A stretch of DNA of 14,206 bases from a virus (Duplodnaviria; Heunggongvirae; Uroviricota; Caudoviricetes). Under the pieces are notes generated by a model. The model was not told where the DNA came from. It made no database searches and saw only the letters and a program-made list of their open reading frames with translations. A program made the translations under genes and the position numbers. The DNA lies in IMG/VR virus record IMGVR_UViG_2531839665_000025, positions 1 through 14,206 of that record; one strand, written 5' to 3'. Shown here one piece after another: positions 1-14,206 of the stretch (positions are counted from its first letter, which is position 1; each line of letters opens with the position of its first letter).

Positions 1-1284
1 TTACTTCTTCGCCTCTGCAACCACTTTACTACCCACGCCGCGGTTATTGTATTCCCACATGCGGTTGTAGTTAGTGTCATTCAGATTGCGCTGTATTTCG
101 TCGTTATCATCTACGCTGCCGGTATTACCCGCAAACGGACGATTAGAGATCACCGCATCGGCCCACGGTTTAGCCGTGTTAAAACCTTCGTTGATGGCGC
201 TATCACGGATCACCACCTGACCGTTGGTATTGGCATCAACATCCAGCGAGCGGCCCAGTTGCGCCACACCATCACCGAAAGCATTGAAACGGCTGTTTAC
301 GGCGAGGAAACCGTAGTAAATGTTGGACAGCGTAGCCGGTGCAAACACATACGCTTCTTGCTGAGTACGTGAGTTCACCACGCGGAATTCGGTGTTATCG
401 AACACCACTGCGCCGCGACCAGAAACGATATCCACATCCCCTTCAATGTAGCTGTTGGTCACCAGCGTACGCGGCTGACGGTTGGTTTCCAGACGGTTCT
501 GCACACCGCTGTTGGTGACAAAGAAGGTGTTCTGACGACCGAGAATGTTAACGTTGTTAATCTGTACCTGGTCACCATCAGTACGCAGTGCCACCGCCGG
601 ATGGTTACCTGCATCTACGCTATCGCCCAGCGTGTTTTCGATGGTCAGATTTTGCAGTTGCAGGCCATTGTTTTGTGACCAGAAGACCGCAGAGCAGAGA
701 ACACCGATACTGTCGCTGCGTTTGCTCTGGCAGCTATCGTACATATACCACGCTGGTTTACCTGGCATATATTTGCCGCGCGGGTTGACGTCGTGACGCC
801 AGTCGGCAGGGCTCATGCCCCCATCAAGGGAAAGCCCAATCTTCACATCAATCGGTTTTTCACCTGTACCGTACAGAGTAATTCCACCCGGAGCAGCAGG
901 GACATACACCGTTCCCTGATACTCACCAGGCATCACGGCAATATACTGGCGCTTGTTAGTGCGCTTGATAATTGCCGCATCTACCGCCGCCTGAATCGTG
1001 GTATGCGTTACACCTTGAGTACCCGCCGGGCCGACAACAAAGTCAGGTTGCGCAGGCAGGGTAATCGGGGAAGGATTCCACGCTGCAGCACCTGGTGTCA
1101 GGGATGCAAAATAGTGTTGAGCATCGAAATTCTGCGCTTCTTTTGCCGACAGAATCGGGCGAGAAGAGGTACCAGGCGCGGTTTGATCAGAAGGACGTTG
1201 ATCGGGTGGTGTTGAGCTACAGGCGGTCAGCGTCACGCCAAAAGCCAATGCCAGCGCCAGACGGGAAACTGAAAATGTGTTCAC
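1..1284 (-). CDS. ybhC: Host gene ybhC: putative pectinesterase-family outer-membrane lipoprotein, complete, GTG start
   Basis: 427-aa ORF; N-terminus MNTFSVSRLALALAFGVTLTAC has a lipoprotein signal with lipobox-like LTAC; matches remembered E. coli YbhC, the gene flanking attB-lambda on the gal side. Start codon is GTG (plus-strand cac at 1282-1284). Confidence 0.85.
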   Translation of the reverse strand: MNTFSVSRLALALAFGVTLTACSSTPPDQRPSDQTAPGTSSRPILSAKEAQNFDAQHYFASLTPGAAAWNPSPITLPAQPDFVVGPAGTQGVTHTTIQAAVDAAIIKRTNKRQYIAVMPGEYQGTVYVPAAPGGITLYGTGEKPIDVKIGLSLDGGMSPADWRHDVNPRGKYMPGKPAWYMYDSCQSKRSDSIGVLCSAVFWSQNNGLQLQNLTIENTLGDSVDAGNHPAVALRTDGDQVQINNVNILGRQNTFFVTNSGVQNRLETNRQPRTLVTNSYIEGDVDIVSGRGAVVFDNTEFRVVNSRTQQEAYVFAPATLSNIYYGFLAVNSRFNAFGDGVAQLGRSLDVDANTNGQVVIRDSAINEGFNTAKPWADAVISNRPFAGNTGSVDDNDEIQRNLNDTNYNRMWEYNNRGVGSKVVAEAKK

Positions 1285-1330
1285 AGGTTGCTCCGGGCTA
1301 TGAAATAGAAAAATGAATCCGTTGAAGCCT

Positions 1331-1418
1331 GCTTTTTTATACTAAGTTGGCATTATAAAAAAACATTGCTTATCAATTTGTTGCAACGAACAGGTCACTA
1401 TCAGTCAAAATAAAATCA
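1331..1418. other. attL: attL: 15-bp lambda core GCTTTTTTATACTAA (1331-1345) followed by phage P' arm with IHF H' site (about 1371-1390) and Int arm-type sites AGGTCACTAT / CAGTCAAAAT (1392-1411)
   Basis: Exact core sequence seen; left of core reads tgaagcct as in attB, right of core is P'-arm sequence leading directly into the int 3' end. Confidence 0.9.
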
Positions 1419-2489
1419 TTATTTGATTTCAATTTTGTCCCACTCCCTGCCTCTGTCATCACGATACTGTGATGCCATGGTGTCCGACTTATGTCCGAGA
1501 AGATGTTGAGCAAACTTATCGCTTATCTGCTTCTCATAGAGTCTTGCAGACAAACTGCGCAACTCGTGAAAGGTAGGCGGATCCCCTTCGAAGGAAAGAC
1601 CTGATGCTTTTCGTGCGCGCATAAAATACCTTGATACTGTGCCGGATGAAAGCGGTTCACGACGAGTAGATGCAATTATGGTTTCTCCGCCAAGAATCTC
1701 TTTGCATTTATCAAGTGTTTCCTTCATTGATATCCCGAGAGCATCAACATGCAATGTTGTAGGGATGGCAATTTTTACGCCTGTTTTGCTTTGTTCGACA
1801 TAAAGATATCCATCTACGATATCAGACCACTTCATTTCGCATAAATCACCAACTCGCTGCCCGGTAACAACAGCCAGTTCCATTGCAAGTCTGAGCCAAC
1901 ATGGTGATGATTCTGCTGCTTGATAAATTTTCAGGTATTCGTCAGCCGTAAGTCTTGATCTCCTTACCTCTGATTTTGCTGCGCGAGTGGCAGCGACCGG
2001 GTTTGTTGTTATATGGCCTTCAGCTATTGCCTCTCGGAATGCATCGCTCAGTGTTGATCTGATTAACTTGGCTGACGCCGCCTTGCCCTCGTCTATGTAT
2101 CCATTGAGCATTGCCGCAATTTCTTTTGTGGTGATGTCTTCAAGTGGAGCATCAGGCAGCCCCCTCCTTATTGCTTTAATTTTGCTCATGTAATTTATGA
2201 GTGTCTTCTGCTTGATTCCTCTGCTGGCGAGGATTTTTTCGTAGCGATCAAGCCATGAATGTAACGTAACAGAATTATCACTGTTGATTCTCGCTGTCAG
2301 AGGCTTGTGTTTGTGTCCTGAAAATAACTCAATATTGGCCTGTATTGCTTCAGTGATTGCTATCCTCCTGTCTCGGCCTAAACCAAACTCTTTACCCGTC
2401 CTTGGGTCCCTGTAGCAGTAATATCCATTGTTTCTTATATAAAGGTTAGGGGGTAAATCCCGGCGCTCATGACTTCGCCTTCTTCCCAT
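1419..2489 (-). CDS. int: Integrase (tyrosine recombinase), lambda Int
   Basis: 356-aa ORF MGRRRSHERRDLPPNLYIRNNGYYCYRDPRTGKEF...; near-identical to remembered lambda Int; sits next to attL; 5' end overlaps xis. Confidence 0.97.
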   Translation of the reverse strand: MGRRRSHERRDLPPNLYIRNNGYYCYRDPRTGKEFGLGRDRRIAITEAIQANIELFSGHKHKPLTARINSDNSVTLHSWLDRYEKILASRGIKQKTLINYMSKIKAIRRGLPDAPLEDITTKEIAAMLNGYIDEGKAASAKLIRSTLSDAFREAIAEGHITTNPVAATRAAKSEVRRSRLTADEYLKIYQAAESSPCWLRLAMELAVVTGQRVGDLCEMKWSDIVDGYLYVEQSKTGVKIAIPTTLHVDALGISMKETLDKCKEILGGETIIASTRREPLSSGTVSRYFMRARKASGLSFEGDPPTFHELRSLSARLYEKQISDKFAQHLLGHKSDTMASQYRDDRGREWDKIEIK

Positions 2490-2685
2490 TTCTGATCCTC
2501 TTCAAAAGGCTACCTGTTACTGGTCGATTTAAGTCAACCTTTACCGCTGATTCGTGGAACAGATACTCTCTTCCATCCTTAACCGGAGGAGGGAATATCC
2601 TGCATTCGCGCACCCATCGACGAACTGTTTCAAGGCTTCTTGGGCGTCGCTGGCGAGCGTTCCACTCCTGAAGTGTCAAGTACAT
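2467..2685 (-). CDS. xis: Excisionase, lambda Xis (72 aa); internal ATG of the 102-aa track ORF
   Basis: MYLTLQEWNARQRRPRSLETVRRWVRECRIFPPPVKDGREYLFHESAVKVDLNRPVTGSLLKRIRNGKKAKS matches lambda Xis; ATG at 2683-2685; overlaps int start as in lambda. Confidence 0.93.
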   Translation of the reverse strand: MYLTLQEWNARQRRPRSLETVRRWVRECRIFPPPVKDGREYLFHESAVKVDLNRPVTGSLLKRIRNGKKAKS

Positions 2686-2697
2686 CGCAAAGTCTCC

Positions 2698-2711
2698 GCA
2701 ATTACACGCAA
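2698..2711 (-). promoter_or_regulatory. cII-box-like TTGC-N6-TTGC inside xis (position of lambda pI -35 region)
   Basis: Minus strand reads TTGCGTGTAATTGC; same motif and location as remembered lambda pI. Confidence 0.5.
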
Positions 2712-2712
2712 G

Positions 2713-2733
2713 AAAAAGCCGCATTGATGCGGC
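2713..2733 (-). terminator. Putative intrinsic terminator (minus strand): stem GCCGCA-TCAA-TGCGGC followed by T5
   Basis: Perfect 6-bp GC-rich inverted repeat 2718-2733 with A-run 2713-2717 on plus (U-run on minus transcript); lies downstream of the 114-aa gene. Confidence 0.5.
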
Positions 2734-2802
2734 GATGGTAGGTCTGGATATCATTGAGCAATGAACAGGCCTCACCGAGTGTGAGGCGGTGTTATTTCAT
2801 GG

Positions 2803-3147
2803 TTAGTCCTTGCGTAGCTCGCTGATTCTTCTGTAAGTCTCTGGTGCTTTGTTTCCGTGTATCTTCATTTCAGACTTCAACAGAGCAACGAGGGAATCCC
2901 ATTCGTTGAGGATTCCTTTGAATGCCGGAACGCGCTTTGCAACCTTGTTGAATGAATCTCTGATTTCTGGAATCTGCTCAACAAGTGCAACGCATCGTCT
3001 GAAATCGGCTGCGTCATGGGGAGCGCCGAAGTGATGACCATAGATATTCTTTTTCAGTCCACATGCGATTGAGGCAAGAGTTGCGCTACTGATGCCAACA
3101 TCGCCAGTCGATTGCCATTTCAAAACCTTCATAGCCAAATCTGACAT
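2803..3147 (-). CDS. Hypothetical 114-aa protein; cargo (moron) gene between xis and a lambda-like terminator
   Basis: ORF MSDLAMKVLKWQSTGDVGISSATLASIACGLKKNIYGHHFGAPHDAADFRRC...; ATG at 3145-3147 with SD GGAGA about 7 nt upstream; no lambda counterpart recalled; no family recognised. Confidence 0.6.
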   Translation of the reverse strand: MSDLAMKVLKWQSTGDVGISSATLASIACGLKKNIYGHHFGAPHDAADFRRCVALVEQIPEIRDSFNKVAKRVPAFKGILNEWDSLVALLKSEMKIHGNKAPETYRRISELRKD

Positions 3148-3161
3148 TTCTTGTCTCCAAT

Positions 3162-3183
3162 AAAAAAAACCGCCATCAGGCGG
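3162..3183 (-). terminator. Intrinsic terminator (minus strand): GCCGCC-TGAT-GGCGG hairpin plus T8
   Basis: Plus strand aaaaaaaaccgccatcaggcgg; on minus strand a GC stem followed by 8 U. The same element is recalled in lambda between ea8.5 and xis. Confidence 0.7.
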
Positions 3184-3249
3184 CTTGGTGTTCTTTCAGT
3201 TCTTCAATTCGAATATTGGTTACATTGTTTTCATATATGAATAAATAAA

Positions 3250-3429
3250 TTAGCTTTTTTCGTTGCCTTCGCGTTCTTTATTAATTTTGACAAAATCGTT
3301 TTTACCACGCTCTCCAAATGCGTCTTTAGAGTCGTTGTATCCGCAATCGCAGCACACATAATCATCAGACCATCCACGCATTGTTTTTTCTTTTGCAATA
3401 TTTCCAGAACCGCATTTTGGACAAGACAT
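3250..3429 (-). CDS. Small zinc-ribbon protein (59 aa) with CPKC...CCDC motif
   Basis: MSCPKCGSGNIAKEKTMRGWSDDYVCCDCGYNDSKDAFGERGKNDFVKINKEREGNEKS; internal ATG at 3427-3429 preceded by SD GGAGGT; the track ORF 3250..3462 begins at a TTG with no SD. Confidence 0.55.
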   Translation of the reverse strand: MSCPKCGSGNIAKEKTMRGWSDDYVCCDCGYNDSKDAFGERGKNDFVKINKEREGNEKS

Positions 3430-3525
3430 ATCACTACCTCCAAAGCATGAGAGAGATGACAACGTAACATTGATTGGAGATTAACAATAGATTGCTGATG
3501 TAAAAGATATGTATAAGCTTAGCTA

Positions 3526-4314
3526 TCAAAGAGGAGGTTCTGGTAGTTGCATCCAGTCGGTTACATTGCGACTCTGTGTTTCGAAAAATTCATCACCATT
3601 GCGGACAATATCGAAAAACTCTCCGTCTCGATATTGCGCATAAAGAACGAATGCGCCATCACATAAAATAATTACGTGCTGACCATCATCTGGCATTAGC
3701 TCACTACAGCTTATCCAACCATCCGGAGTTACCGGAAGCGAGAACGGCAGCACATCTCTGTGAACAAGTTTTTGCTGTGACAGGTTATCCAGAACTTTCT
3801 GTACTGCTGCATCACCGAATACACCAAGCGCATCTGCCATAACTCCTACAACCTGATAAGCCTCAGCGCATACCGTGGATAAACCATCCGGAATTACCGG
3901 AGAGTTGCCGGGTTCTTTAATGTGCAAGCGAGGCTCACCATCTTTTGGTTCAGGCCACTGGCGCTCCATGTTGATCTTCAATTTATCTTCCATAGCAGCG
4001 GTAATTTCAGCATCGCTGATGCCAGCACGGCGCTGTGCATCCCACAACAGGAAATGCATATCAGCCCACTCGCTGAGATCGTCTGGTTCGGCTGCGGCTT
4101 CCAGAGCCTCTTTTGAGAGGTGTTTCAGTGGACCAATGGGGCCAACGCAGCCAAATGTGGAGTCAGACCATTTGGCATGCTCGTGGCGAATCAGTTCGCG
4201 TTCCAGTGATGCCAGTGCAATTCGTGCCAGTTCCATTTGTTCGCCACGAGTAAGCCCGTTTTCAAGCGGATTTTTAATGAACAATTCAATACGTTCTTTG
4301 GTAATAGTGGTCAT
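3526..4314 (-). CDS. Two-domain phage protein: N-terminal MazG-like nucleotide pyrophosphohydrolase-like domain (DUF550-like) and C-terminal DUF551-like domain
   Basis: 262 aa; N-terminal region carries paired acidic helices (EALEAAAE ... EWAD) reminiscent of MazG-type NTP-PPases; C-terminus DGWISCSELMPDD...TDWMQLPEPPL resembles the remembered DUF551 signature; SD AAGGA before ATG at 4312-4314. Confidence 0.5.
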   Translation of the reverse strand: MTTITKERIELFIKNPLENGLTRGEQMELARIALASLERELIRHEHAKWSDSTFGCVGPIGPLKHLSKEALEAAAEPDDLSEWADMHFLLWDAQRRAGISDAEITAAMEDKLKINMERQWPEPKDGEPRLHIKEPGNSPVIPDGLSTVCAEAYQVVGVMADALGVFGDAAVQKVLDNLSQQKLVHRDVLPFSLPVTPDGWISCSELMPDDGQHVIILCDGAFVLYAQYRDGEFFDIVRNGDEFFETQSRNVTDWMQLPEPPL

Positions 4315-4324
4315 TTGTTAGTCC

Positions 4325-5080
4325 TTAAAGTGCTAGTTGCAATTGCATTTCAAAGCGGTCGCGTTGTTCACAATACGCAAGAGAACCAGGGCTATTGTGT
4401 GCCTCAATCCGTTCTACCATTAATGCTGCGCGTGTCTCTTTACTTGCAGGTGCATAAGCCCCAGACCAGGCTTTATCAATACCGATGTTTCGAGCGACGT
4501 TCGTACTATCTGCGCTGGCTAAGGGTAATTTTGTGAATATCAGCGGATTTAACATGCGCAATCCATGTAGTTTCGTAACCGGCTGACCATGCCCATCAAC
4601 AATGTGACGAATCAGGTCTTTCATTCTGGCTACCGCAAGAGTTGGGCGCTTTACGTCATAGTCGCCACAACTACCGATAGCCACTCGCGGAAACTCATTG
4701 CACAAATGAATAAATCGCTCGTCACTTTCATTCATGTGCCACACTGGAACGCCAGCTAGTTTTCCGTGAGGCCACTCATTCAGAAGCGCATCATTTTCCT
4801 CCTCTCCGCCATCAATAACATCCGGGATAATGGCAAAATCGAATCCTGGGTGATTCTTCCAGCGAGCAACAAACTCGTAGTAATCGCTCCAGTCGATTTT
4901 GTTTTTGCCAGCTGCTTTCCAGGCGGTGAATGCACCGTTGTCCAGCGCGAACGACTGACAGTATTCAGCCGCGAGATTGATCTGGCCTGAATGCGCAAAA
5001 CTGATAAACGCATGTCGCCCTTTCCATGCTCTCATTGCGCACGTATCAGGAGTAATAGGCCCACCGTGGTAGTGAATCAT
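4325..5080 (-). CDS. TGT-fold (tRNA-guanine transglycosylase / DpdA-like) protein, 251 aa, lacking the C-terminal zinc subdomain
   Basis: Motif order parallels bacterial Tgt: HGGPITP (cf. VVETPCFMPVGT), FALDNGAFTAW (cf. LTDSGGFQVF), FDFAIIPDVI (cf. DIVMIFDEC), RVAIGSCGD (cf. YAVGGLAVGE), ADSTNVARNIG (cf. FDCVMPTRNARNG). Start taken at ATG 5078-5080 with SD AAGGAGA; the track's longer start at 5122 has no SD. Confidence 0.5.
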   Translation of the reverse strand: MIHYHGGPITPDTCAMRAWKGRHAFISFAHSGQINLAAEYCQSFALDNGAFTAWKAAGKNKIDWSDYYEFVARWKNHPGFDFAIIPDVIDGGEEENDALLNEWPHGKLAGVPVWHMNESDERFIHLCNEFPRVAIGSCGDYDVKRPTLAVARMKDLIRHIVDGHGQPVTKLHGLRMLNPLIFTKLPLASADSTNVARNIGIDKAWSGAYAPASKETRAALMVERIEAHNSPGSLAYCEQRDRFEMQLQLAL

Positions 5081-5081
5081 C

Positions 5082-5489
5082 TCACTCTCCTTTGATGCGA
5101 ATGCCAGTAGCGCGGATTGCATCGATGACTTCAGAAACTTTGTATGCCATTACCGTTTGGTAATCATCGTGAAAATCTGTTCGATGAAGCATGCTGCTAC
5201 GTTCCGGGAGCAGTATTTCCCGCGCTTCCAGTTCTGCAATGCGCTTTTTTGCTGCTTCCAGTTCATCCAGTAATTCCAGCACGGTAGCCGGATTAGCCTT
5301 GGCAACAAAATCCCGGACTGGCTTACAATCAATCTCCGCAATGGGTTGATACGATGTGTAGCCATGCTGTCTTGTATAACTACCGTGACGAATAACGAAA
5401 AAATCACCATTTATTTTTTTAGCCTGCCACTTATCTTCACCGGCTTTCTCTGCCGCTTCACGCAGTGCCTGAGAGTTAATTTCGCTCAC
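5082..5489 (-). CDS. ea22: Ea22-like protein (135 aa), GTG start overlapping upstream stop
   Basis: N-terminus MSEINSQALREAAE and C-terminus GIRIKGE match remembered lambda Ea22 ends; central part differs. Confidence 0.7.
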   Translation of the reverse strand: MSEINSQALREAAEKAGEDKWQAKKINGDFFVIRHGSYTRQHGYTSYQPIAEIDCKPVRDFVAKANPATVLELLDELEAAKKRIAELEAREILLPERSSMLHRTDFHDDYQTVMAYKVSEVIDAIRATGIRIKGE

Positions 5490-5707
5490 TTCGAACCTCT
5501 CTGTTTACTGATAAGCTCCAGATCCTCCTGGCAACTTGCACAAGTCCGACAACCCTGAACGACCAGGCGTCTTCGTTCATCTATGGGATCGCCACACTCA
5601 CAACAATGAGTGGCGGATATAGTCTGGTAGTTCAGACGACGCATTTTTATTGCTGTATTGCGCTGTAATTCTTCAATTTCTGATGCTGAATCAATGATGT
5701 CCGCCAT
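5486..5707 (-). CDS. TraR/DksA-type C4 zinc-finger protein (73 aa)
   Basis: MADIIDSASEIEELQRNTAIKMRRLNYQTISATHCCECGDPIDERRRLVVQGCRTCASCQEDLELISKQRGSK; CxxC-N17-CxxC; near-identical ORF recalled in lambda. Confidence 0.8.
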   Translation of the reverse strand: MADIIDSASEIEELQRNTAIKMRRLNYQTISATHCCECGDPIDERRRLVVQGCRTCASCQEDLELISKQRGSK

Positions 5708-5756
5708 CTTTCATTAATCCCTGAATTGTTGGTTAATACGCTTGAGGGTAAATGCG

Positions 5757-5783
5757 AATAATAAAAAAGGAGCCTGTAGCTCC
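5757..5783 (-). terminator. Putative intrinsic terminator (minus strand): GGAGC-TACAG-GCTCC plus U-rich tail
   Basis: Plus strand aataataaaaaaggagcctgtagctcc; hairpin then T6ATTATT on the minus transcript. Confidence 0.5.
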
Positions 5784-5805
5784 CTGATGATTTTGCTTTT
5801 CATGT

Positions 5806-6087
5806 TCACCGTTCCTTAAAGACGCCGTTTAACATGCCGATCGCCAGGCTTAAATGAGTCGGTGTGAATCCCATCAGCGTTACCGTTTCGCGGTGCTTCT
5901 TCAGTACGCTACGGCAAATGTCATCGACGTTTTTATCCGGAAACTGCTGTCTGGCTTTTTTGATTTCAGAATTAGCCTGACGGGCAATGCTGCGAAGGGC
6001 GTTTTCTTGCTGAGGTGTCACTGAACAAGCCCCATGTCGGCAAGCATAAGCACACAGAATATGAAGCCCGCTGCCAGAAAAATGCAT
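5806..6087 (-). CDS. Lambda orf61-family small protein (93-aa form)
   Basis: MHFSGSGLHILCAYACRHG...ALRSIARQANSEIKK matches remembered lambda orf61 residues 11 onward; reading frame differs from lambda after a T6/A6 homopolymer (see findings); start uncertain (ATG 6085-6087, or GTG 6019-6021). Confidence 0.6.
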   Translation of the reverse strand: MHFSGSGLHILCAYACRHGACSVTPQQENALRSIARQANSEIKKARQQFPDKNVDDICRSVLKKHRETVTLMGFTPTHLSLAIGMLNGVFKER

Positions 6088-6097
6088 TCAGTGGTTG

Positions 6098-6289
6098 TCA
6101 TACCTGGTCTCTCTCATCTGCTTCTGCTTTCGCCACCATCATTTCCAGCTTTTGTGAAAGGGATGTGGCTAACGTATGAAATTCTTCGTCTGTTTCTACT
6201 GGTATTGGCACAAACCTGACTCCAATTTGAGCAAGGCTATGTGCCATCTCAATGCTCGTTCTTAACTCAACAGGAGATGCTTTGTGCAT
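6098..6289 (-). CDS. Lambda orf63-like small protein (63 aa)
   Basis: 63-aa ORF; 28-nt overlap with next gene, identical to the lambda orf63/orf60a arrangement. Confidence 0.65.
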   Translation of the reverse strand: MHKASPVELRTSIEMAHSLAQIGVRFVPIPVETDEEFHTLATSLSQKLEMMVAKAEADERDQV

Positions 6290-6444
6290 ACAGCCCCTCG
6301 TTTATTATTTATCTCCTCAGCCAGCCGCTGGGCTTTCAGTGGATTTTGGATAACAGAAAGGTCGGGAAATACCCAGCCTCGCTTTGTAACGGAGTAGACG
6401 AAAGTGATCGCACCTACCCGGATATTATCGTGAGGATGCTTCAT
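6262..6444 (-). CDS. Lambda orf60a-like small protein (60 aa from second ATG)
   Basis: [60 protein letters not shown]; ATG at 6442-6444 overlaps the lambda-frame exo stop as ATGA. Confidence 0.65.
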
Positions 6445-7120
6445 CGCCATTGCTCCCCAAATACAAAACCAATTTCAGCCAGTGCCTCGTCCATTTTTCG
6501 ATGAACTCCGGCACCATCTCGTCAAAACCCGCCATGTACTTTTCATCCCGCTCAACCACGACATAATGCAGTCCTTCACGCTTCATACGCGGGTCATAGT
6601 TGGCAAAGTACCAGGCATCTTTTCGCGTCACCCACATGCTGTACTGCACCTGGGCCATGTAAGCTGACTTTATGGCCTCGAAACCACCGAGCCGGAACTT
6701 CATGAAATCCCGGGAGGTAAACGGGCATTTCAGTTCAAGGCCGTTGCCGTCACTGCATAAACCATCTGGAGAGCAGGCGGTACGCATACTTTCGTCGCGA
6801 TAGATGATCGGTGATTCAGTAACATTCACGCCGGAAGTGAACTCAAACAGGGCTCTGGCGTCGTTCTCGTACTGTTTTCCCCAGGCCAGCGCTTTAGCGT
6901 TAACTTCCGGAGCCACACCGGTGCAAACCTCAGCAAGCAGGGTGTGGAAGTAGGACATTTTCATGTCAGGCCACTCTTTTCCGGAGCGGGGTTTTGCTAT
7001 TACGTTATGAACTTCTGAAGCTGTGATGACGCCGAGCCGTAATTTGTGCCACGCATCATCCCCCTGTTCGACAGCTCTCACGTCGATCCCGGTACGCTGC
7101 AGGATAATGTCCGGTGTCAT
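6425..7120 (-). CDS. exo: Lambda exonuclease (Red-alpha) with frameshifted C-terminus
   Basis: [43 protein letters not shown]... matches lambda Exo up to ...VPEFIEK, then reads [22 protein letters not shown] instead of [17 protein letters not shown]; the lambda-frame stop would be at 6441-6443. Confidence 0.85.
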
Positions 7121-7902
7121 GCTGCCACCTTCTGCTCAGTGGCTTTCTGTTTCAGGAATCCAAGAGCTTTCACTGCTTCGGCCTGTGTCAGTTCTGACGA
7201 TGCGCGAATGTCGCGGCGAAATATCTGGGAACAGAGCGGCAATAAGTCGTCATCCCATGTTTTATCCAGGGCGATTAGCAGAGTGTTAATCTCCTGCATG
7301 GTTTCATCGTTAACCGGAGTGATGTCGCGTTCCGGCTGGCGTTCTGCAGTGTATGCAGTATTTTCGACAATGCGCTCGGCTTCATCCTTGTCATAGATAC
7401 CAGCAAATCCGAAGGCCAGACGGGCACACTGAATCATAGCTTTATGCCGTAACATCCGTTTAGGATGCGACTGCCACGGCCCCGTGATTTCTCTGCCTTC
7501 GCGGGTTTTGAATGGTTCGCGGCGGCATTCATCCATCCATTCGGTAACGCAGATCGGATGATTACGGTCCTTGCGGTAAATCCGGCATGTACAGGATTCA
7601 TTGTCCTGCTCAAAGTCCATGCCATCAAACTGCTGGTTTTCATTGATGATGCGGGACCAGCCATCAACGCCCACCACCGGAACGATGCCGTTCTGCTTAT
7701 CAGGGAAGGCGTAAATTTCTTTCGTCCACGGATTAAGGCCGTACTGGTTGGCGACGATCAACAATGCGATGAACTGCGCATCGCTGGCATCGCCTTTAAA
7801 TGCCGTCTGGCGAAGAGTGGTGATCAGTTCCTGTGGGTCGACAGAATCCATGCCGACACGTTCAGCCAGCTTCCCTGCCAGCGTTGCGAGTGCTGTACTC
7901 AT
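7117..7902 (-). CDS. bet: Recombination protein Bet (Red-beta), single-strand annealing protein
   Basis: 261 aa [59 protein letters not shown]...; ATGA overlap with exo. Confidence 0.97.
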
Positions 7903-7907
7903 CCGTT

Positions 7908-8324
7908 TTATACCTCTGAATCAATATCAACCTGATGGTGAGCAATGGTTTCAACCATGTACCGGATGTGTTCTGCCATGCGCTCCTGAAACTCAACATC
8001 GTCATCAAACGCACGGGTAATGGCTTTTTTGCTGGCCCCGTGGCGTTGCAAATGACCGATGCATAGCGATTCAAACAGGTGCTGGGGCAGGCCTTTTTCC
8101 ATGTCGTCTGCCAGTTCTGCCTCTTTCTCTTCACGGGCTATCTGCTGGTAGTGACGCGCCCAGCTCTGAGCCTCAAGACGATCCTGAATGTAATAAGCGT
8201 TCATGGCCGAACTCCTGAAATAGCTGTGAAAATATCGCCCGCGAAATGCCGGGCTGATTAGGAAAACAGGAAAGGGGGTTAGTGAATGCTTTTGCTTGAT
8301 CTCAGTTTCAGTATTAATATCCAT
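7908..8324 (-). CDS. gam: Gam, RecBCD inhibitor
   Basis: 138 aa [88 protein letters not shown]... matches lambda Gam. Confidence 0.96.
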
Positions 8325-8422
8325 TTTTTATAAGCGTCGACGGCCTCACGAAACATCTTTTCATCGCCAATAAAAGTGGCGATAGTGAATTTAGTCTGGA
8401 TAGCCATAATTGTTTGATCCAT
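8279..8422 (-). CDS. kil: Kil (host cell-division/FtsZ inhibitor), 47 aa
   Basis: [47 protein letters not shown]; internal ATG 8420-8422 of the 89-aa track ORF; 46-nt overlap with gam and 32-nt overlap with cIII as in lambda. Confidence 0.9.
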
Positions 8423-8555
8423 TTTTTGGGACTCCTGGCTGATTAAGTATGTCGATAAGGCGTTTCCATCCGTCACGTAATTTACGGGTGATTCGTTCAA
8501 GTAAAGATTCGGAAGGGCAGCCAGCAACAGGCCACCCTGCAATGGCATATTGCAT
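8391..8555 (-). CDS. cIII: CIII, FtsH/HflB inhibitor that stabilises CII, 54 aa
   Basis: Translated by hand from the minus strand: [54 protein letters not shown]; not in the ORF track as a separate ORF (different frame from kil). Confidence 0.88.
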   Translation of the reverse strand: MQYAIAGWPVAGCPSESLLERITRKLRDGWKRLIDILNQPGVPKNGSNNYGYPD

Positions 8556-8627
8556 GGTGTGCTCCTTATTTATACATAACGAAAAACGCCTCGAGTGAAG
8601 CGTAATTGGTATGCGGTAACGCCGCGC

Positions 8628-8996
8628 TCAGGCGGCCTTGATAGTCATATCATCTGAATCAAATATTCCTGATGTATCGATATCGGTAATTCTTATTCCT
8701 TCACTACCATCCATTGGAGGCCATCCTTCCTGACCATTTCCATCATTCCAGTCGAACTCACACACAACACCATATGCATTTAAGTCGCTTGAAATTGCTA
8801 TAAGCAGAGCATGTTGCGCCAGCATGATTAATACAGCATTTAATACAGAGCCGTGTTTATTGAGTCGGTATTCAGAGTCTGACCAGAAATTATTAATCTG
8901 GTGAAGTTTTTCCTCTGTCATTACGTCATGGTCGATTTCAATTTCTATTGATGCTTTCCAGTCGTAATCAATGATGTATTTTTTGATGTTTGACAT
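8628..8996 (-). CDS. ea10: Ea10 protein (122 aa)
   Basis: MSNIKKYIIDYDWKASIEIEIDHDVMTEEKLHQINNFWSDSEYRLNKHGSVLNAVLIMLAQHALLIAISSDLNAYGVVCEFDWNDGNGQEGWPPMDGSEGIRITDIDTSGIFDSDDMTIKAA matches lambda Ea10; SD GAGGA upstream. Confidence 0.93.
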   Translation of the reverse strand: MSNIKKYIIDYDWKASIEIEIDHDVMTEEKLHQINNFWSDSEYRLNKHGSVLNAVLIMLAQHALLIAISSDLNAYGVVCEFDWNDGNGQEGWPPMDGSEGIRITDIDTSGIFDSDDMTIKAA

Positions 8997-9014
8997 CTGT
9001 TCATATCCTCACAG

Positions 9015-9042
9015 ATAAAAAATCGCCCTCATCTTGGAGGGC
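9015..9042 (-). terminator. Putative intrinsic terminator (minus strand): GCCCTC-CAAGAT-GAGGGC plus T6
   Basis: Inverted repeat 9025-9030 / 9037-9042 with A-run 9017-9022 on plus; lies just upstream of the ea10 SD; a near-identical element is recalled in lambda. Confidence 0.5.
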
Positions 9043-9159
9043 AAAGAAGATTTCCAATAATCAGAACAAGTCGGCTCCTGTTTAGTTACGAGCGACATTG
9101 CTCCGTGTATTCACTCGTTGGAATGAATACACAGCGCTGTGTTTATTCTGTTGTTTGCG

Positions 9160-9184
9160 TGAAAATGAAATCCGCCTGAGCGGG
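9160..9184 (-). terminator. Possible terminator hairpin (CCCGC-TCAG-GCGG) with U-rich tail just 3' of the 293-aa gene
   Basis: Minus strand reads CCCGCTCAGGCGGATTTCATTTTCACGC; tail is only moderately U-rich. Confidence 0.35.
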
Positions 9185-10066
9185 TTATGACCACTTTTTG
9201 TTTGGGTTTCGTTGGTGAGCGTGGTTTACAGGATTATTTGATATACCCCATAACTCTGACTCGCTTATCTCTACACGAGAGAAAGACCTGCTTTCTTTCA
9301 GTTCTTTTATAAACCTAGAACCTAAGATGACATCTATTGTACCAGAAAGTTCTTGTAAAAGATCTATGTTTTTTCTGAGGAAGAAAATATCTTCTTTATA
9401 TTTAATTTTTACATAGAATTTATTCTGTATTTTTAATATATCAAAGCATGGCAGATATCTATATCCCTCATATTTTCGCCACTGCTTAACAATTATAACA
9501 TCTTTTTCATTTACTGCATTAATCAGCCCAAGACCAAGTACAGGTATGAATATTCTATTGTCTGCCGAAAGCGTACAATTATCACCACCAGGCAAATATG
9601 TATAAATCATGTCGGAATTTTTATACGCATCAACGAATGCACGTAAGAAGCGTACATATTTTTGCCATCCGTTTATACCGAATTTACCATATAAGTATTC
9701 TTTATTTGTTAGAAGAAAACTATTTGTATCAGGATCCTTATCTACAGACCTGTCGATAAGATCTCCAACTACGTTTACAAAGTCAAAGACAGAGTTTAAT
9801 AAGAACAATTGTCTTTCAGTAGGGCGAATTTCAATTATGTAGCCAGGATGAAGACGATATTGCATCTGCTTACGAAGTATACCGAACGCTTGGGTCCGAG
9901 CATCTGAAAGCAACTTCTTGTCGCCATCGCCGTGAGCATTGTTTCTAATAAAACTGATATAATTTGCTAATTTTTCAGCCTCTTTTTTGTGTTTTTTTCG
10001 CTCTGATGCTGAGTCTATTGGTTTTGGTATGGACTTGTAATCAATCTTCTTCATTACGTACCTCAT
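9185..10066 (-). CDS. Hypothetical 293-aa cytoplasmic protein encoded in an AT-rich cargo block between N and ea10
   Basis: Long ORF MRYVMKKIDYKSIPKPIDSASERKKHKKEAEKLANYISFIRNNAHGDGDKK...; no hydrophobic segments; visibly lower GC than the flanks; start ATG 10064-10066 overlaps the N stop (ATGA), alternative ATG 10052-10054 has SD GAGGT; no family recognised. Confidence 0.65.
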   Translation of the reverse strand: MRYVMKKIDYKSIPKPIDSASERKKHKKEAEKLANYISFIRNNAHGDGDKKLLSDARTQAFGILRKQMQYRLHPGYIIEIRPTERQLFLLNSVFDFVNVVGDLIDRSVDKDPDTNSFLLTNKEYLYGKFGINGWQKYVRFLRAFVDAYKNSDMIYTYLPGGDNCTLSADNRIFIPVLGLGLINAVNEKDVIIVKQWRKYEGYRYLPCFDILKIQNKFYVKIKYKEDIFFLRKNIDLLQELSGTIDVILGSRFIKELKESRSFSRVEISESELWGISNNPVNHAHQRNPNKKWS

Positions 10067-10386
10067 GCCAATGGAATGGATTCCCCTTTAACCTTTTGTC
10101 TTCCTTGACAAGTTATACCGAACTCACCTGGCTTGCTATACCAAACTCGATGATTCTTGCGCTCAATACGTTGCAGGTTGCTTTCAATCTGTTCGTGGTA
10201 TTCAGCCAGCACCGTAAGGTCTATCGGATTCAGTGCGCTTTCTACTCGTGATTTCGGTTTGCGATTCAGCGAGAGAATAGGGCGGTTAACTGGTTTAGCG
10301 CTTACCCCAACCAACAGGGGATTTGCTGCTTTCCATTGAGCCTGTTTCTCTGCGCGACGTTCGCGGCGGCGTGTTTGTGCATCCAT
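10063..10386 (-). CDS. N: Antiterminator N (107 aa)
   Basis: MDAQTRRRERRAEKQAQWKAANPLLVGVSAKPVNRPILSLNRKPKSRVESALNPIDLTVLAEYHEQIESNLQRIERKNHRVWYSKPGEFGITCQGRQKVKGESIPLA, with an arginine-rich N-terminal RNA-binding motif; internal ATG 10384-10386 with SD AGGAGA; the 151-aa track ORF is an upstream extension. Confidence 0.9.
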   Translation of the reverse strand: MDAQTRRRERRAEKQAQWKAANPLLVGVSAKPVNRPILSLNRKPKSRVESALNPIDLTVLAEYHEQIESNLQRIERKNHRVWYSKPGEFGITCQGRQKVKGESIPLA

Positions 10387-10543
10387 CTGGATTCTCCTGT
10401 CAGTTAGCTTTGGTTGTGTGTGGTAGTCGTAGTCCTGAACGAAAACACCCCGCAATGGCACATTGGCAGCTAATCCGGATTCGCACTTCCGGCCAATGCT
10501 TCGTTTCGTATCACACACACCAAAGCCTTCTGCTTTGAATGCT

Positions 10544-10574
10544 GCCCTTCTTCAGGGCTTAATTTTTAAGAGCC
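10544..10574 (-). promoter_or_regulatory. nutL: nutL: boxB GCCCTGAAGAAGGGC (10544-10558) and boxA-like GGCTCTTA (10567-10574)
   Basis: boxB is an exact lambda nutL boxB on the minus strand; boxA differs at its first base from the remembered lambda CGCTCTTA. Confidence 0.8.
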
Positions 10575-10619
10575 TCACCTTCAATGGTGGTCAGTGCGTC
10601 CTGCTGATGGCTTAAAATT

Positions 10620-10687
10620 ACAAGGAAGATTGTATGTTGTAAACAAGAAATATTGTAAAAAGGGGCGTGAAAAACAAACTCCATTGT
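10620..10687 (-). promoter_or_regulatory. 434-type left operator/promoter OL-pL: three 14-bp ACAA-N6-TTGT operators
   Basis: ACAAGGAAGATTGT (10620-10633), ACAAGAAATATTGT (10643-10656), ACAAACTCCATTGT (10674-10687) upstream (in minus-strand sense) of nutL and N. Confidence 0.8.
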
Positions 10688-10737
10688 TTTTAAACGGAAA
10701 ATAGTTTGTTTTTTTGTTATCGAGATTGAGGTGGGGA

Positions 10738-12090
<1,353 letters not shown>

Positions 12091-12098
12091 GACATTCC

Positions 12099-12130
12099 CG
12101 CTCTTACACATCCCAGCCCTGAAAAAGGGC
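12099..12130 (+). promoter_or_regulatory. nutR: nutR: boxA CGCTCTTA (12099-12106) and boxB GCCCTGAAAAAGGGC (12116-12130)
   Basis: Exact lambda nutR boxA and boxB immediately after the cro stop. Confidence 0.88.
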
Positions 12131-12140
12131 ATCAAAATAA

Positions 12141-12176
12141 ACCACACCTATGGTGTATGCATTTATTTGCATACAT
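12141..12176 (+). terminator. tR1 region (Rho-dependent terminator / cII leader), lambda-like
   Basis: Sequence accacacctatggtgtatgcatttatttgcataca matches the remembered lambda tR1 region between nutR and cII. Confidence 0.5.
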
Positions 12177-12209
12177 TCAATCAATTGTTATCTAAGGAAA
12201 TACTTACAT

Positions 12210-12503
12210 ATGGTTCGTGCAAACAAACGCAACGAGGCTCTACGAATCGAGAGTGCGTTGCTTAACAAAATCGCAATGCTTGGAACTGAGAAGACAGCGG
12301 AAGCTGTGGGAGTTGATAAGTCGCAGATCAGCAGGTGGAAGAGGGATTGGATTCCAAAGTTCTCAATGCTGCTTGCTGTTCTTGAATGGGGTGTCGTCGA
12401 CGACGACATGGCTCGATTGGCACGACAAGTTGCTTCGATTCTCACCAATAAAAAACGCCCGGCGGCAACCGAGCGTTCTGAACAAATCCAGATGGAATTC
12501 TGA
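12210..12503 (+). CDS. cII: CII transcriptional activator (97 aa)
   Basis: MVRANKRNEALRIESALLNKIAMLGTEKTAEAVGVDKSQISRWKRDWIPKFSMLLAVLEWGVVDDDMARLARQVASILTNKKRPAATERSEQIQMEF; internal ATG of the 117-aa track ORF. Confidence 0.95.
   Translation: MVRANKRNEALRIESALLNKIAMLGTEKTAEAVGVDKSQISRWKRDWIPKFSMLLAVLEWGVVDDDMARLARQVASILTNKKRPAATERSEQIQMEF
12219..12232 (-). promoter_or_regulatory. pRE cII-binding box TTGC-N6-TTGC (minus strand) within the cII 5' end
   Basis: Minus strand TTGCGTTTGTTTGC; same position as lambda pRE -35. Confidence 0.6.
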
Positions 12504-12525
12504 GGTTATTACTGGAACTATCAAC
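12447..12525 (-). ncRNA. oop: oop antisense RNA (about 77-79 nt) overlapping the cII 3' end, with intrinsic terminator
   Basis: Minus strand ends ...CGGUUGCCGCCGGGCGUUUUUUAUU (terminator at 12447-12475); sequence matches remembered lambda oop with a few substitutions. Confidence 0.75.
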
Positions 12526-12535
12526 AGGAGTCATT

Positions 12536-13375
12536 ATGACAAATACAGCAAAAATACTCAACTTCGGCAGAGGTAACTTTGCCGGACAGGAGCGTAATGT
12601 GGCAGATCTCGATGATGGTTACGCCAGACTATCAAATATGCTGCTTGAGGCTTATTCAGGCGCAGATCTGACCAAGCGACAGTTTAAAGTGCTGCTTGCC
12701 ATTCTGCGTAAAACCTATGGGTGGAATAAACCAATGGACAGAATCACCGATTCTCAACTTAGCGAGATTACAAAGTTACCTGTCAAACGGTGCAATGAAG
12801 CCAAGTTAGAACTCGTCAGAATGAATATTATCAAGCAACAATGCGGCATGTTTGGACCAAATAAAAACATCTCAGAATGGTGTATCCCTCAAAACGAGGG
12901 AAAATCCCCTAAAACGAGGGATAAAACATCCCTCAAATTGGGGGATTGCTATCCCTCAACACAGGGGAACACAAAAGACACTAATACAAAAGAAAATAGA
13001 AAAGATTATTCGTCAGAGAATTCTGGCGAATCCTCTGACCAGCCAGAAAACGACCTTTCTGTGGTGAAACCTGATGCTGCAATTCAGAGCGGCAGCAAAT
13101 GGGGGACAGCAGAAGACCTGACCGCCGCAGAGTGGATGTTTGACATGGTGAAGACTATCGCGCCATCAGCCAGAAAACCGAATTTTGCAGGGTGGGCTAA
13201 CGATATCCGCCTGATGCGTGAACGTGACGGACGTAACCACCGCGATATGTGTGTGCTGTTCCGCTGGGCCTGCCAGGACAACTTCTGGTCCGGTAATGTG
13301 CTGAGCCCGGCCAAACTCCGCGACAAGTGGACCCAGCTCGAAATCAACCGTAACCATCGCCGCACAGATGGTTAA
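12536..13375 (+). CDS. O: Replication initiator O (279 aa; C-terminus shorter than and different from lambda O)
   Basis: MTNTAKILNFGRGNFAGQERNVADLDDGYARLSNMLLEAYSGADLTKRQFKVLLAILRKTYGWNKPMDRITDSQLSEITKL... matches lambda O up to ...KWTQLEINRN, then ends HRRTDG. Confidence 0.9.
   Translation: MTNTAKILNFGRGNFAGQERNVADLDDGYARLSNMLLEAYSGADLTKRQFKVLLAILRKTYGWNKPMDRITDSQLSEITKLPVKRCNEAKLELVRMNIIKQQCGMFGPNKNISEWCIPQNEGKSPKTRDKTSLKLGDCYPSTQGNTKDTNTKENRKDYSSENSGESSDQPENDLSVVKPDAAIQSGSKWGTAEDLTAAEWMFDMVKTIAPSARKPNFAGWANDIRLMRERDGRNHRDMCVLFRWACQDNFWSGNVLSPAKLRDKWTQLEINRNHRRTDG
12884..13010. promoter_or_regulatory. ori-lambda: four O-binding iterons (ATCCCTCAAAACGAGGGA type) plus adjacent AT-rich region inside O
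   Basis: Iterons at about 12884-12903, 12904-12923, 12926-12947, 12950-12972, followed by an A/T-rich stretch acaaaagacactaatacaaaagaaaatagaaaagattatt. Confidence 0.85.
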
Positions 13376-14048
13376 CTTTGACCGTGAGCAGATGCGTCGG
13401 ATCGCCAACAACATGCCGGAACAGTACGACGAAAAGCCTCAGGTACAGCAGGTAGCGCAGATCATCAACGGTGTGTTCAGCCAGTTACTGGCAACTTTCC
13501 CGGCGAGCCTGGCTAACCGTGACCAGAACGAACTGAACGAAATCCGCCGCCAGTGGGTTCTGGCTTTCCGGGAAAACGGGATCACCACAATGGAACAGGT
13601 TAACGCAGGAATGCGCGTAGCCCGTCGGCAGAATCGACCATTTCTGCCATCACCCGGGCAGTTTGTTGCATGGTGCCGGGAAGAAGCATCCGTTATCGCC
13701 GGACTGCCAAACGTCAGCGAGCTGGTTGATATGGTTTACGAGTATTGCCGGAAGCGAGGCCTGTATCCGGATGCGGAGTCTTATCCGTGGAAATCAAACG
13801 CGCACTACTGGCTGGTTACCAACCTGTATCAGAACATGCGGGCCAATGCGCTTACTGATGCGGAATTACGCCGTAAGGCCGCAGATGAGCTTGTCCATAT
13901 GACTGCGAGAATTAACCGTGGTGAGGCGATCCCTGAACCAGTAAAACAACTTCCTGTCATGGGCGGTAGACCTCTAAATCGTGCACAGGCTCTGGCGAAG
14001 ATCGCAGAACTCAAAGCTAAGTTCGGACTGAAAGGAGCAAGTGTATGA
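13368..14048 (+). CDS. P: Replication protein P (helicase loader), 226 aa; lacks the first 7 residues of lambda P
   Basis: MVNFDREQMRRIANNMPEQYDEKPQVQQVAQIINGVFSQLLATFPASLANRDQNELNEIRRQWVLAFRENG... matches lambda P from residue 8; start overlaps the O 3' end; no obvious SD. Confidence 0.88.
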   Translation: MVNFDREQMRRIANNMPEQYDEKPQVQQVAQIINGVFSQLLATFPASLANRDQNELNEIRRQWVLAFRENGITTMEQVNAGMRVARRQNRPFLPSPGQFVAWCREEASVIAGLPNVSELVDMVYEYCRKRGLYPDAESYPWKSNAHYWLVTNLYQNMRANALTDAELRRKAADELVHMTARINRGEAIPEPVKQLPVMGGRPLNRAQALAKIAELKAKFGLKGASV

Positions 14049-14206
14049 CGGGCAAAGAGGCAATTATTCATTACCTGGGGACGCATAATAGCTTCTGTGC
14101 GCCGGACGTTGCCGCGCTAACAGGCGCAACAGTAACCAGCATAAATCAGGCCGCGGCTAAAATGGCACGGGCAGGTCTTCTGGTTATCGAAGGTAAGGTC
14201 TGGCGA
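14045..14206 (+). CDS. ren: Ren (Rex-exclusion protection), 5' partial of gene, runs off window end
   Basis: Hand-translated MTGKEAIIHYLGTHNSFCAPDVAALTGATVTSINQAAAKMARAGLLVIEGKVWR (54 codons, no stop in window); ATG 14045-14047 overlaps P stop (ATGA). Confidence 0.85.
   Translation, partial: MTGKEAIIHYLGTHNSFCAPDVAALTGATVTSINQAAAKMARAGLLVIEGKVWR

Follow-up and report, generated by a model that had tools for sequence, protein, structure and literature searches.

What does a lambdoid phage carry between its antiterminator gene N and ea10 when the genes that phage lambda has there are replaced? The question is raised by a stretch of 14,206 nucleotides (nt) from a virus of the Caudoviricetes (IMG/VR record IMGVR_UViG_2531839665_000025, positions 1 to 14,206; in the following, the window), in which the ORF list places one long open reading frame (ORF; 9185..10066, minus strand) in this interval. 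A preliminary description, written from the letters of the sequence, had regarded the ORF as an orphan without assignable motif and had proposed a role in defence, exclusion or anti-restriction. We propose that its product belongs, as a long form, to the Nun class of phage factors that arrest transcription (exclusion factors), a reading to which we assign a probability of roughly 60%.

Nun, the textbook case of a peptide wedge that stops RNA polymerase, has so far been seen as peculiar to phage HK022. The analyses described here suggest instead that the arrest peptide is a portable module carried on many different targeting heads, one of which would be the recognition lobe of a TnpB/Cas12-type protein without its nuclease; in the literature searched, we found no report of such a domestication. 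To our knowledge, the TnpB-derived regulators described so far have retained both a guide RNA and the RuvC fold.

A Nun-type peptide at the C-terminus

The last 14 residues of the window protein, VNHAHQRNPNKKWS, are identical to residues 96–109 of HK022 Nun (C-termini: HK022 Nun, ...VMHRVVNHAHQRNPNKKWS; window protein, ...WGISNNPVNHAHQRNPNKKWS), so the protein does carry an assignable motif. In the structure obtained by cryo-electron microscopy for Nun on an E. coli elongation complex, only residues 87–109 are ordered, and these carry every known arrest determinant (Kang et al., 2017; PMC5386594). N97, H98 and H100 are in touch with the RNA, the template strand and the beta-prime rudder, R102 and the C-terminal carboxylate form a pair, and K106, K107 and W108 occupy a pocket that lies between hybrid and downstream DNA. 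Nun can do without N103, and it loses its activity when the last 13 residues are removed (PMC5386594).

This ending is kept in divergent homologues. P0003 (68% identical), P0035 (48%), P0005 (47%), P0004 (42%) and P0006 (37%) all end V-N-H-A-H-x-R-x-x-x-K-K-W(-S), and in the alignment of the long family V96, N97, H98, A99, H100, R102, K106, K107 and W108 (Nun numbering) are invariant, while positions 101, 103–105 and 109 vary. The 14 tail codons of these homologues differ from those of the window by 6–8 synonymous and 3–4 non-synonymous changes. Judged by these codons, purifying selection acts on the tail at the protein level throughout the family: the peptide rather than the DNA appears to be conserved, because synonymous sites have diverged while the contact residues stay fixed. 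Ahead of the tail, residues 249–282 are predicted to be disordered (AlphaFold2; predicted local distance difference test, pLDDT, <50), and the tail would hang on a flexible tether, as it does in Nun. The SFSRVE motif in this region is common to the long family and its distant relatives.

With CPT_434_48 of phage 434, which the depositors labelled 'Nun C-terminal peptide-containing protein' in GenBank, the protein shares 99.7% identity, and it matches PHROG 12139 (E 8e-206; no function assigned there). Residues 274–293 of a 293-amino-acid (aa) reading of the ORF further match PHROG 5632, 'Nun-like transcription termination factor' (E 7e-5). It is therefore no orphan. RefSeq names it hypothetical, and the genome announcement of phage 434 (OL657226) does not mention a Nun-tail gene. 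Likewise, in the literature searched we found no paper on the Nun-tail gene of OL657226, on a 'Nun-like' protein or on a 'Nun homolog', no report that the family has a TnpB-like lobe, that it occurs in the nun slot, that the tail has spread as a module or that relatives lie within bacteriophage exclusion (BREX) operons, and nothing relevant that combined TnpB, BREX and the WED domain. Already known is the tail similarity, from one GenBank annotation and the PHROGs; the new element would be a TnpB-derived head on a Nun-type factor.

We searched for homologues in 5.8 billion proteins and, exhaustively with a profile, in 1.84 billion representatives. The long family is rare: genomes sampled at one per species held no long relative, and a scan for the tail pattern there returned short Nuns alone (in Providencia, Photorhabdus, Proteus, Shimwellia and Escherichia). 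Within E. coli, the 2.1-kb stretch comprising ea10, the ORF and N is present at ≥80% coverage in 74 of 5,426 complete genomes, many of them O103 and O121.

The tail itself is spread more widely. A scan of IMG/VR with a degenerate DNA pattern of N-H-A-H-x-R-x3-K-K-W yielded at least 119 loci; since the pattern imposes the residues searched for, this set shows the distribution of the tail and not selection on it. The carriers among the matches listed are HK022-type Nun (112 aa), many proteins of 83–123 aa and the long family (289–293 aa). The 83–123-aa proteins among these matches have differing arginine-rich N-termini, some of them nearly lambda-N-like (MDAQARRREKRKEKQEEWK...); they include 88-aa ORFs in L041, L044, L054, L055 and L095, and further ones are found in L043, L064, L108 and L111 and in L013, L014, L015, L021, L022, L025, L039, L047, L050, L087, L099, L110, L121 and L126. 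Some presumably resemble N of phage phi21 and others N of P22. The differing N-termini suggest that the short Nun-type proteins make up a set of exclusion factors whose targets are different types of nut or boxB.

Tail genes also occur in stacks. In L007 (6733–8345), an N-like gene is followed by the long gene and then by a short tail-bearing ORF (~8037–8345) that the gene caller had missed, and L034 (3251–3855) holds two overlapping short tail-bearing genes in tandem. In the Shiga-toxin (Stx) phage PA28 (NC_041935; L010, 2909–3046), a 45-codon ORF located 3' of an N-like gene corresponds to the C-terminal 45 residues of HK022 Nun. This ORF of Stx phages, which also occurs in the IMG/VR loci L037 and L080, has no arginine-rich motif; it could be a gene remnant or a minimal gene for the tail alone. 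As a separate observation, the 96-aa protein P0008 is a chimera of the first 23 residues of Bet and the last 73 of the long Nun-like protein, which implies a prophage deletion that extends from bet to the inside of the long gene and keeps the tail in frame.

The long gene lies directly 3' of an N gene in L006, L007 and phage 434. L004, which encodes the 42% identical homologue, has no N gene; here, a cI-type repressor gene and a pL-like promoter are followed by a 74-nt block and then by the homologue. The block matches HK022 putL at 70 of 74 positions, although the predicted fold of the L004 leader is not more stable than that of shuffled sequence. The putL site is placed just downstream of pL (PMC9378689). 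By gene order and sequence match, the L004 homologue occupies the nun slot of an HK022-type phage.

The body and its distant relatives

An AlphaFold2 model computed from a 30-sequence alignment (mean pLDDT 82.5; predicted template modelling score 0.77) is confidently folded over residues 4–248. It comprises a basic helical hairpin (16–65), a mixed alpha/beta core (72–217) and two helices (223–258). The folded body thus has ~250 residues, and the flexible segment after it, which ends in the tail peptide, has ~30–40. The whole family is basic, with an isoelectric point (pI) of 9.5 for the window protein, and no transmembrane segment is present (maximum Kyte-Doolittle value 1.38 over 19 residues), in agreement with the preliminary description. 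The folds suggested there (Abi_2, HEPN, nuclease or nucleotidyltransferase) were not found: searches of the window protein against Pfam, NCBIfam and PADLOC (PADLOC-DB 2.0) returned no match, Pfam scans of all 30 family members nothing meaningful, and a sequence search of the PDB with the family profile no match either.

The N-terminal hairpin is confined to the long Nun subfamily. By eye, its stretch ERKKHKKEAEKLANY resembles TRRRERRAEKQAQW of lambda N, and it was considered as an arginine-rich motif; homologues conserve neither the key aromatic residue nor the arginines, and we rejected this reading. A search with the N-terminal profile of the long family against 43 short Nun and N proteins (hmmsearch) gave no significant match either (best E 0.028, ~6 bits). 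The N-terminus of the window protein is lysine-rich and predicted to be part of the folded hairpin; it does not have the character of a boxB-binding arginine-rich motif.

The core points elsewhere. Its best Foldseek matches in the PDB are dCas12f, CasLambda, Cas12f and Cas12p, with E-values that are not significant, and its best viral matches are TnpB-type 'transposases' of giant viruses. We therefore compared the family with a TnpB profile, built from residues 1–203 of ISDra2 TnpB (a sequence 100% identical to chain A of 8BF8) and 12 diverse plasmid TnpB N-termini. In hhalign, the alignment of family residues 69–223 with TnpB 4–176 comprises 143 collinear columns and has a score of 37.3 (E 1.1e-4). 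All 32 controls, which were reversed, block-shuffled or column-shuffled, score lower, with a maximum of 26.2. In TnpB, residues 1–12 and 117–176 form the WED domain and 13–116 the REC domain, RuvC begins at 185, and the recognition lobe clamps the DNA duplex of the transposon-associated motif (TAM) and, together with RuvC, holds the guide-RNA scaffold (PMC10097598). Because the alignment ends at TnpB 176, the end of WED, the core would correspond to the whole recognition lobe and to nothing of the nuclease lobe. In agreement with this, the modelled core is a WED barrel of the oligonucleotide/oligosaccharide-binding (OB) fold with a REC-like helical bundle after strand 1, and what follows are two helices and the disordered tail, with neither a RuvC D-E-D triad nor a zinc-finger TNB. 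Here, the most conserved motif of the family (C160, S/T161, S163, N166) falls on the strand of TnpB with the DNA-contacting residues Q121, T123 and N124; the alignment being moderate, C160–N166 may be the counterpart of this DNA-contact strand.

A guide RNA is not apparent nearby. Rfam has no family near the gene, nor in L004 or L006, and the gaps beside the gene are narrow: 8 nt upstream in the window, where the downstream side is common lambda sequence, 46 nt in L004, and 23 and 35 nt in BREX loci. The single Rfam match in the window is to the lambda cIII thermoregulator (RF01804, 88.5 bits; 8510–8568, minus strand), as expected upstream of cIII.

The exhaustive search also uncovered ~20 proteins of 213–326 aa that share the core (query 73–227) and a pre-tail motif, S-x-x-Y-S-R-V-D-F. 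These distant relatives lack the N-terminal hairpin and end in ...GGLPSLGK(R/G)R rather than in the Nun peptide. Four of them (P0027, P0030, P0032 and P0033; 276–288 aa) are encoded in a BREX-like operon, after BrxC and before PglX; the order is BrxA, BrxB, BrxC, core relative, PglX, a pair of unknown proteins, an HSP70-like one and a second PglX-like methyltransferase (L008, L009, L142, L143, L144 and L146; e.g. L142 3128–16867). A gene for a WYL regulator lies upstream of this BREX variant in L142 and L144, and no PADLOC model matches the embedded relative P0032. Another relative, P0029, has as neighbours a ParB-like protein, an NYN/OST-HTH protein, a 1003-aa protein with a RelA/SpoT domain, a PLD nuclease and a DUF1998 (MZB) protein, a neighbourhood that is DISARM-like in its gene content.

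It is conceivable, though we hold it only tentatively, that the WED+REC lobe is a domesticated TnpB/Cas12 module that reads a specific nucleic acid (a TAM-like DNA motif or a target found by way of an RNA) and delivers a polymerase-jamming peptide, and that the same module, equipped with another C-terminal peptide, is a core component of an undescribed BREX variant.

The locus, the gene and its transcription

The early region of the window is of the phage 434 type; on the minus strand, it reads cI(434), hex, oL/pL, nutL, N, the ORF studied, a terminator, ea10, cIII, kil, gam, bet and exo. BLAST homology to lambda extends over 8400–9156 (98.3%) and 10073–10612 (92.4%), and the 916-bp segment between them (9157–10072) stands in place of lambda 34065–35046 (ral, orf28 and sieB). 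The segment is regarded as foreign to lambda because the homology breaks off at 9156 and resumes at 10073. The GC content of the ORF is 34.6% (30% at third codon positions), compared with 46.7% in the window and 48.8% in N. The preliminary description was thus right to see a single long ORF of lower GC between lambda-like flanks, in a horizontally exchanged cassette of the N–ea10 slot. A diverged ral or sieB, which it had named as speaking against its view, is not what fills the slot: no Pfam or NCBIfam match to SieB or Ral was obtained, and the ral/sieB segment of lambda has no DNA similarity to 9157–10072. With N and ea10 of a lambdoid early operon as its flanks, the gene is accompanied by no IS200/IS605 or IS607 element, TnpA or transposon ends.

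As stated earlier, the first ATG of the ORF overlaps the stop codon of N (ATGA), but it is probably not the start. We prefer the second ATG because a GAGG precedes it, because it is the annotated start in both the phage 434 GenBank record and RefSeq WP_001299183.1, and because in the 68% identical homologue of L006 the N-overlapping ATG reads ATG AGG TAA, a stop at once. The GAGG shares bases with the N stop codon (TGA, 10063–10065), the 434 record annotates a ribosome-binding site at the matching position, and the arrangement TGAGGTA..ATG is kept in L006. Rather than being fused onto N, as had been described, the gene is a cistron of its own, 8 nt 3' of N. The coordinates are collected in Table 1.

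Table 1. Features of the long Nun-like gene and its surroundings (window positions)
Feature	Position	Strand	Remarks
Coding sequence, long Nun-like protein	9185..10054	-	289 aa; TAA stop at 9185-9187
Alternative upstream ATG	10066	-	would yield 293 aa
Shine-Dalgarno GAGG of the long Nun-like gene	10061..10064	-	6 nt ahead of ATG 10054
Residues 1-68, basic helical hairpin	9851..10054	-	net charge +9, pI 10; predicted helices 16-38 and 43-65, pLDDT ~95
Residues 69-223, TnpB/Cas12-like WED+REC lobe	9386..9850	-	predicted OB-fold barrel with inserted helical bundle; no RuvC or TNB after it
Residues 224-258, two helices after the core	9281..9385	-	AlphaFold2 helices 223-243 and 247-258
Residues 259-289, S-x-S-F-S-R-V-E motif, flexible linker and tail	9188..9280	-	AlphaFold2, PHROG 5632
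Putative arrest peptide, last 14 codons	9188..9229	-	VNHAHQRNPNKKWS; identity to HK022 Nun 96-109
Mosaic block	9118..9230	-	~96% DNA identity to HK022 (DNA alignment)
N antiterminator gene	10063..10386	-	lambda/434 type, 107 aa; directly upstream, same pL transcript
nutL boxB hairpin	10544..10558	-	GCCCTGAAGAAGGGC on minus strand; upstream of N; stem-loop found; nutL annotated at matching 434 position
Intrinsic-terminator-like site	9013..9044	-	3' of the long Nun-like gene, before ea10; terminator annotated here in 434 record

In a terminator scan of the minus strand from 10800 to 8900, the site before ea10, located at 9044–9023 within the interval of Table 1, is the sole intrinsic-terminator-like match, and none lies between N and the gene. 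Because this site comes after the gene, N and the long Nun-like gene form one transcription unit, and the earlier statement that the protein is made whenever N is made is upheld in so far as the two are co-transcribed. A search for a lysogenic promoter gave only 3 weak consensus matches, compared with 4.5 expected by chance, and none upstream of the gene; two lie inside the gene on its strand and one on the opposite strand.

Two observations concern the neighbourhood. The hex ORF (10738–11214, minus strand), located downstream of cI(434), is the 434 'repressor protection protein'; the 434 record calls the published start wrong and annotates 134 aa, while the longest ORF here has 158 aa and overlaps the end of cI. 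Furthermore, L002 (4522–5735), from an otherwise identical prophage of E. coli 2015C-3163, carries an IS3-family insertion between gam and kil that is absent from the window.

Proposed mode of action, alternatives and known systems

In the proposed mechanism, the protein would be made with N from pL right after infection or induction and not in the repressed prophage. Like the tail of Nun, its tail would block translocation, inserted into the space that separates the nucleic acids from the zipper, lid and rudder of beta-prime. The body would replace the arginine-rich motif of Nun as the targeting module that decides where arrest happens: it may tether the protein to one nucleic acid in particular, be it the upstream duplex DNA or the nascent RNA of a competitor or host unit, and selective arrest would follow from this tethering. 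Because its last helix ends ~9 residues before the equivalent of Nun residue 87, the body may sit at the entrance used by Nun, beside the upstream DNA duplex and the RNA exit. The effect would be the exclusion of co-infecting or co-resident elements, or the shut-off of selected transcription. An action in lytic growth rather than as a guard of the prophage is suggested because no lysogenic promoter was seen upstream and the gene is co-expressed with N from pL. Thus, an exclusion- or defence-type role, as proposed in the preliminary description, is the best reading, given the Nun arrest tail and the core relatives inside BREX operons; nothing we found suggests an anti-restriction role.

Several points weigh against this proposal. 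Given that no lysogen promoter was found, prophage-type exclusion as exerted by HK022 Nun is not expected in this phage, and lambda does plate on 434 lysogens. The phage has lambda-type nut sites and an N of its own, so that the protein could not be aimed at lambda-type boxB without self-harm, and its putative target could be either DNA or RNA. Nun H93 and R94, which contact the upstream DNA, are replaced by N-N in the window protein. The TnpB similarity relies on an hhalign score that is moderate and on a predicted structure whose input alignment has 30 sequences, the Foldseek matches not being significant alone. We found no experiment on this protein in the literature. Finally, the tail sits at a known mosaic recombination boundary, and, judged from this copy alone, a hitch-hiking origin is possible.

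This last point leads to the question whether the tail is an inert passenger, captured together with the boundary sequence downstream of it, in which case the body would act alone as a DNA-binding regulator, an anti-defence or a defence protein. The DNA identity to HK022 begins exactly at the codon of Nun V96, passes the stop codon and runs ~70 bp further, where the HK022 side ends at an IS903 insertion, as expected of a mosaic joint. The ~40 bp after the stop codon (window 9117–9156) are a recombination 'boundary sequence' found in >200 lambdoid phage records, annotated just 3' of the stop codon as 'boundary sequence 4' in the lambdoid record EF120460. The 50 bp that encode the tail behave as a separate mini-module, since Stx1 phages share the tail and stop codon alone and lambda the downstream part alone. 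The different tail of the core relatives in BREX operons likewise fits a body that acts by itself. However, homologues down to 37% identity keep the tail, their synonymous divergence around fixed contact residues argues for selection on the peptide rather than a recent transfer of DNA, and the tail is always protein-terminal and always follows a disordered linker, so that we consider a passenger quite improbable. Somewhat easier to imagine, if still unlikely, is a tail that works without any targeting: at a high dose from pL, it would arrest host polymerase non-specifically, N- or Q-modified complexes would be spared or out-compete it, and the body would serve for stability, dosage or the binding of polymerase or Nus factors. 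Nun binds non-specific elongation complexes with a dissociation constant (Kd) of ~300 nM, which makes general shut-off at high dose a rival to be taken seriously, and in lysogens Nun is specific because its concentration is low, ~100 nM (PMC5386594); the gene, moreover, is on the strong immediate-early pL transcript, right after N and before the first intrinsic terminator. Yet a conserved nucleic-acid-binding lobe of 150 residues exceeds what such a shut-off needs, and nothing indicates that N-modified complexes resist the tail. Specificity is also argued for by the family member in the nun slot of L004, as HK022 nun is expressed in lysogens without general arrest (PMC5386594).

Two further explanations concern the target. 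The gene always lies beside an antitermination determinant (N/nutL or putL), and its basic N-terminal helix looks like that of lambda N by eye (KEAEKLANY compared with RRAEKQAQW); the protein might thus act on the phage's own pL and pR elongation complexes, competing with N or modulating it, and time early expression. We regard this as very unlikely, since the resemblance to lambda N is neither significant nor kept in homologues, HK022 nun mutants grow and lysogenise normally (PMC4124055), and stacks of tail genes with differing N-termini fit weapons against other phages better. The most doubtful of the explanations considered here is that the lobe still binds a guide RNA and steers the tail to complementary DNA or RNA, as an analogy with TldR proteins (TnpB-like nuclease-dead repressors) would suggest. 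The core does descend from, or resemble, the WED+REC lobe of RNA-guided nucleases, and TnpB has been recruited to transcription control several times by domestication (PMC10705468). The RuvC lobe, which co-holds the guide-RNA scaffold in TnpB, is however missing, no Rfam match lies near the gene, and the adjoining gaps leave no room for a dedicated non-coding RNA, although such an RNA could be encoded elsewhere.

A targeted member of the Nun class would be of interest beyond this locus, since phage 434, a founding model phage, has the gene, and so do prophages of O103, O121 and other pathogenic E. coli. The proposal can be tested with existing genetics, namely Nun-resistant rpoC alleles, and with in vitro elongation-complex assays. 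If the body gives target specificity, the protein would represent a new principle of selective transcription arrest and provide a handle on the function of the related BREX-variant protein; as a natural weapon of 'targeted transcription arrest', it would tie together TnpB domestication, BREX and Nun-type exclusion.

Among known systems, SieB and Ral of lambda share with the window protein the N–ea10 interval and the character of accessory, non-essential 'moron'-type functions tied to exclusion or restriction alleviation, but there is no sequence or fold similarity, and sieB lies on the opposite strand with a promoter of its own. The BREX-variant protein shares the core (~20% identity, profile E down to 1e-16), the S-x-x-Y-S-R-V-D-F motif and its basic character, but differs in having no N-terminal hairpin, in its C-terminus and in being encoded in a defence operon instead of a phage early operon. 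With TnpB, Cas12 and Fanzor, the protein would have in common the element order of TnpB 4–176 (WED strand 1, a four-helix REC insertion and the remaining WED strands), an N-terminal motif h-x-L-x-P-x-x-x-Q-x-x-x-L and the motif C-S/T-L/I-S-x-x-N that aligns with the DNA-contact strand; by contrast, it has no RuvC, TNB or C-terminal domain and no adjacent guide RNA that we could see, and the identity is ~10–15%. TldRs, roadblocks that sit on DNA and retain a guide RNA and an inactivated RuvC fold, appear, like the window protein, to be domesticated TnpB-related proteins that interfere with transcription, whereas the window protein lacks the entire nuclease lobe and would use a peptide that acts inside RNA polymerase. 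Lastly, HK022 Nun shares the 14 C-terminal residues with their contact residues, the disordered region before the tail and the position at the head of the pL operon beside nut/put. Nun, however, is a largely unstructured protein of 109–112 aa with a short arginine-rich boxB-binding peptide and is expressed in lysogens, whereas the 289-aa window protein has a folded body of 250 residues in the place of this peptide and is co-expressed with N, so that it is not expected in the lysogen.

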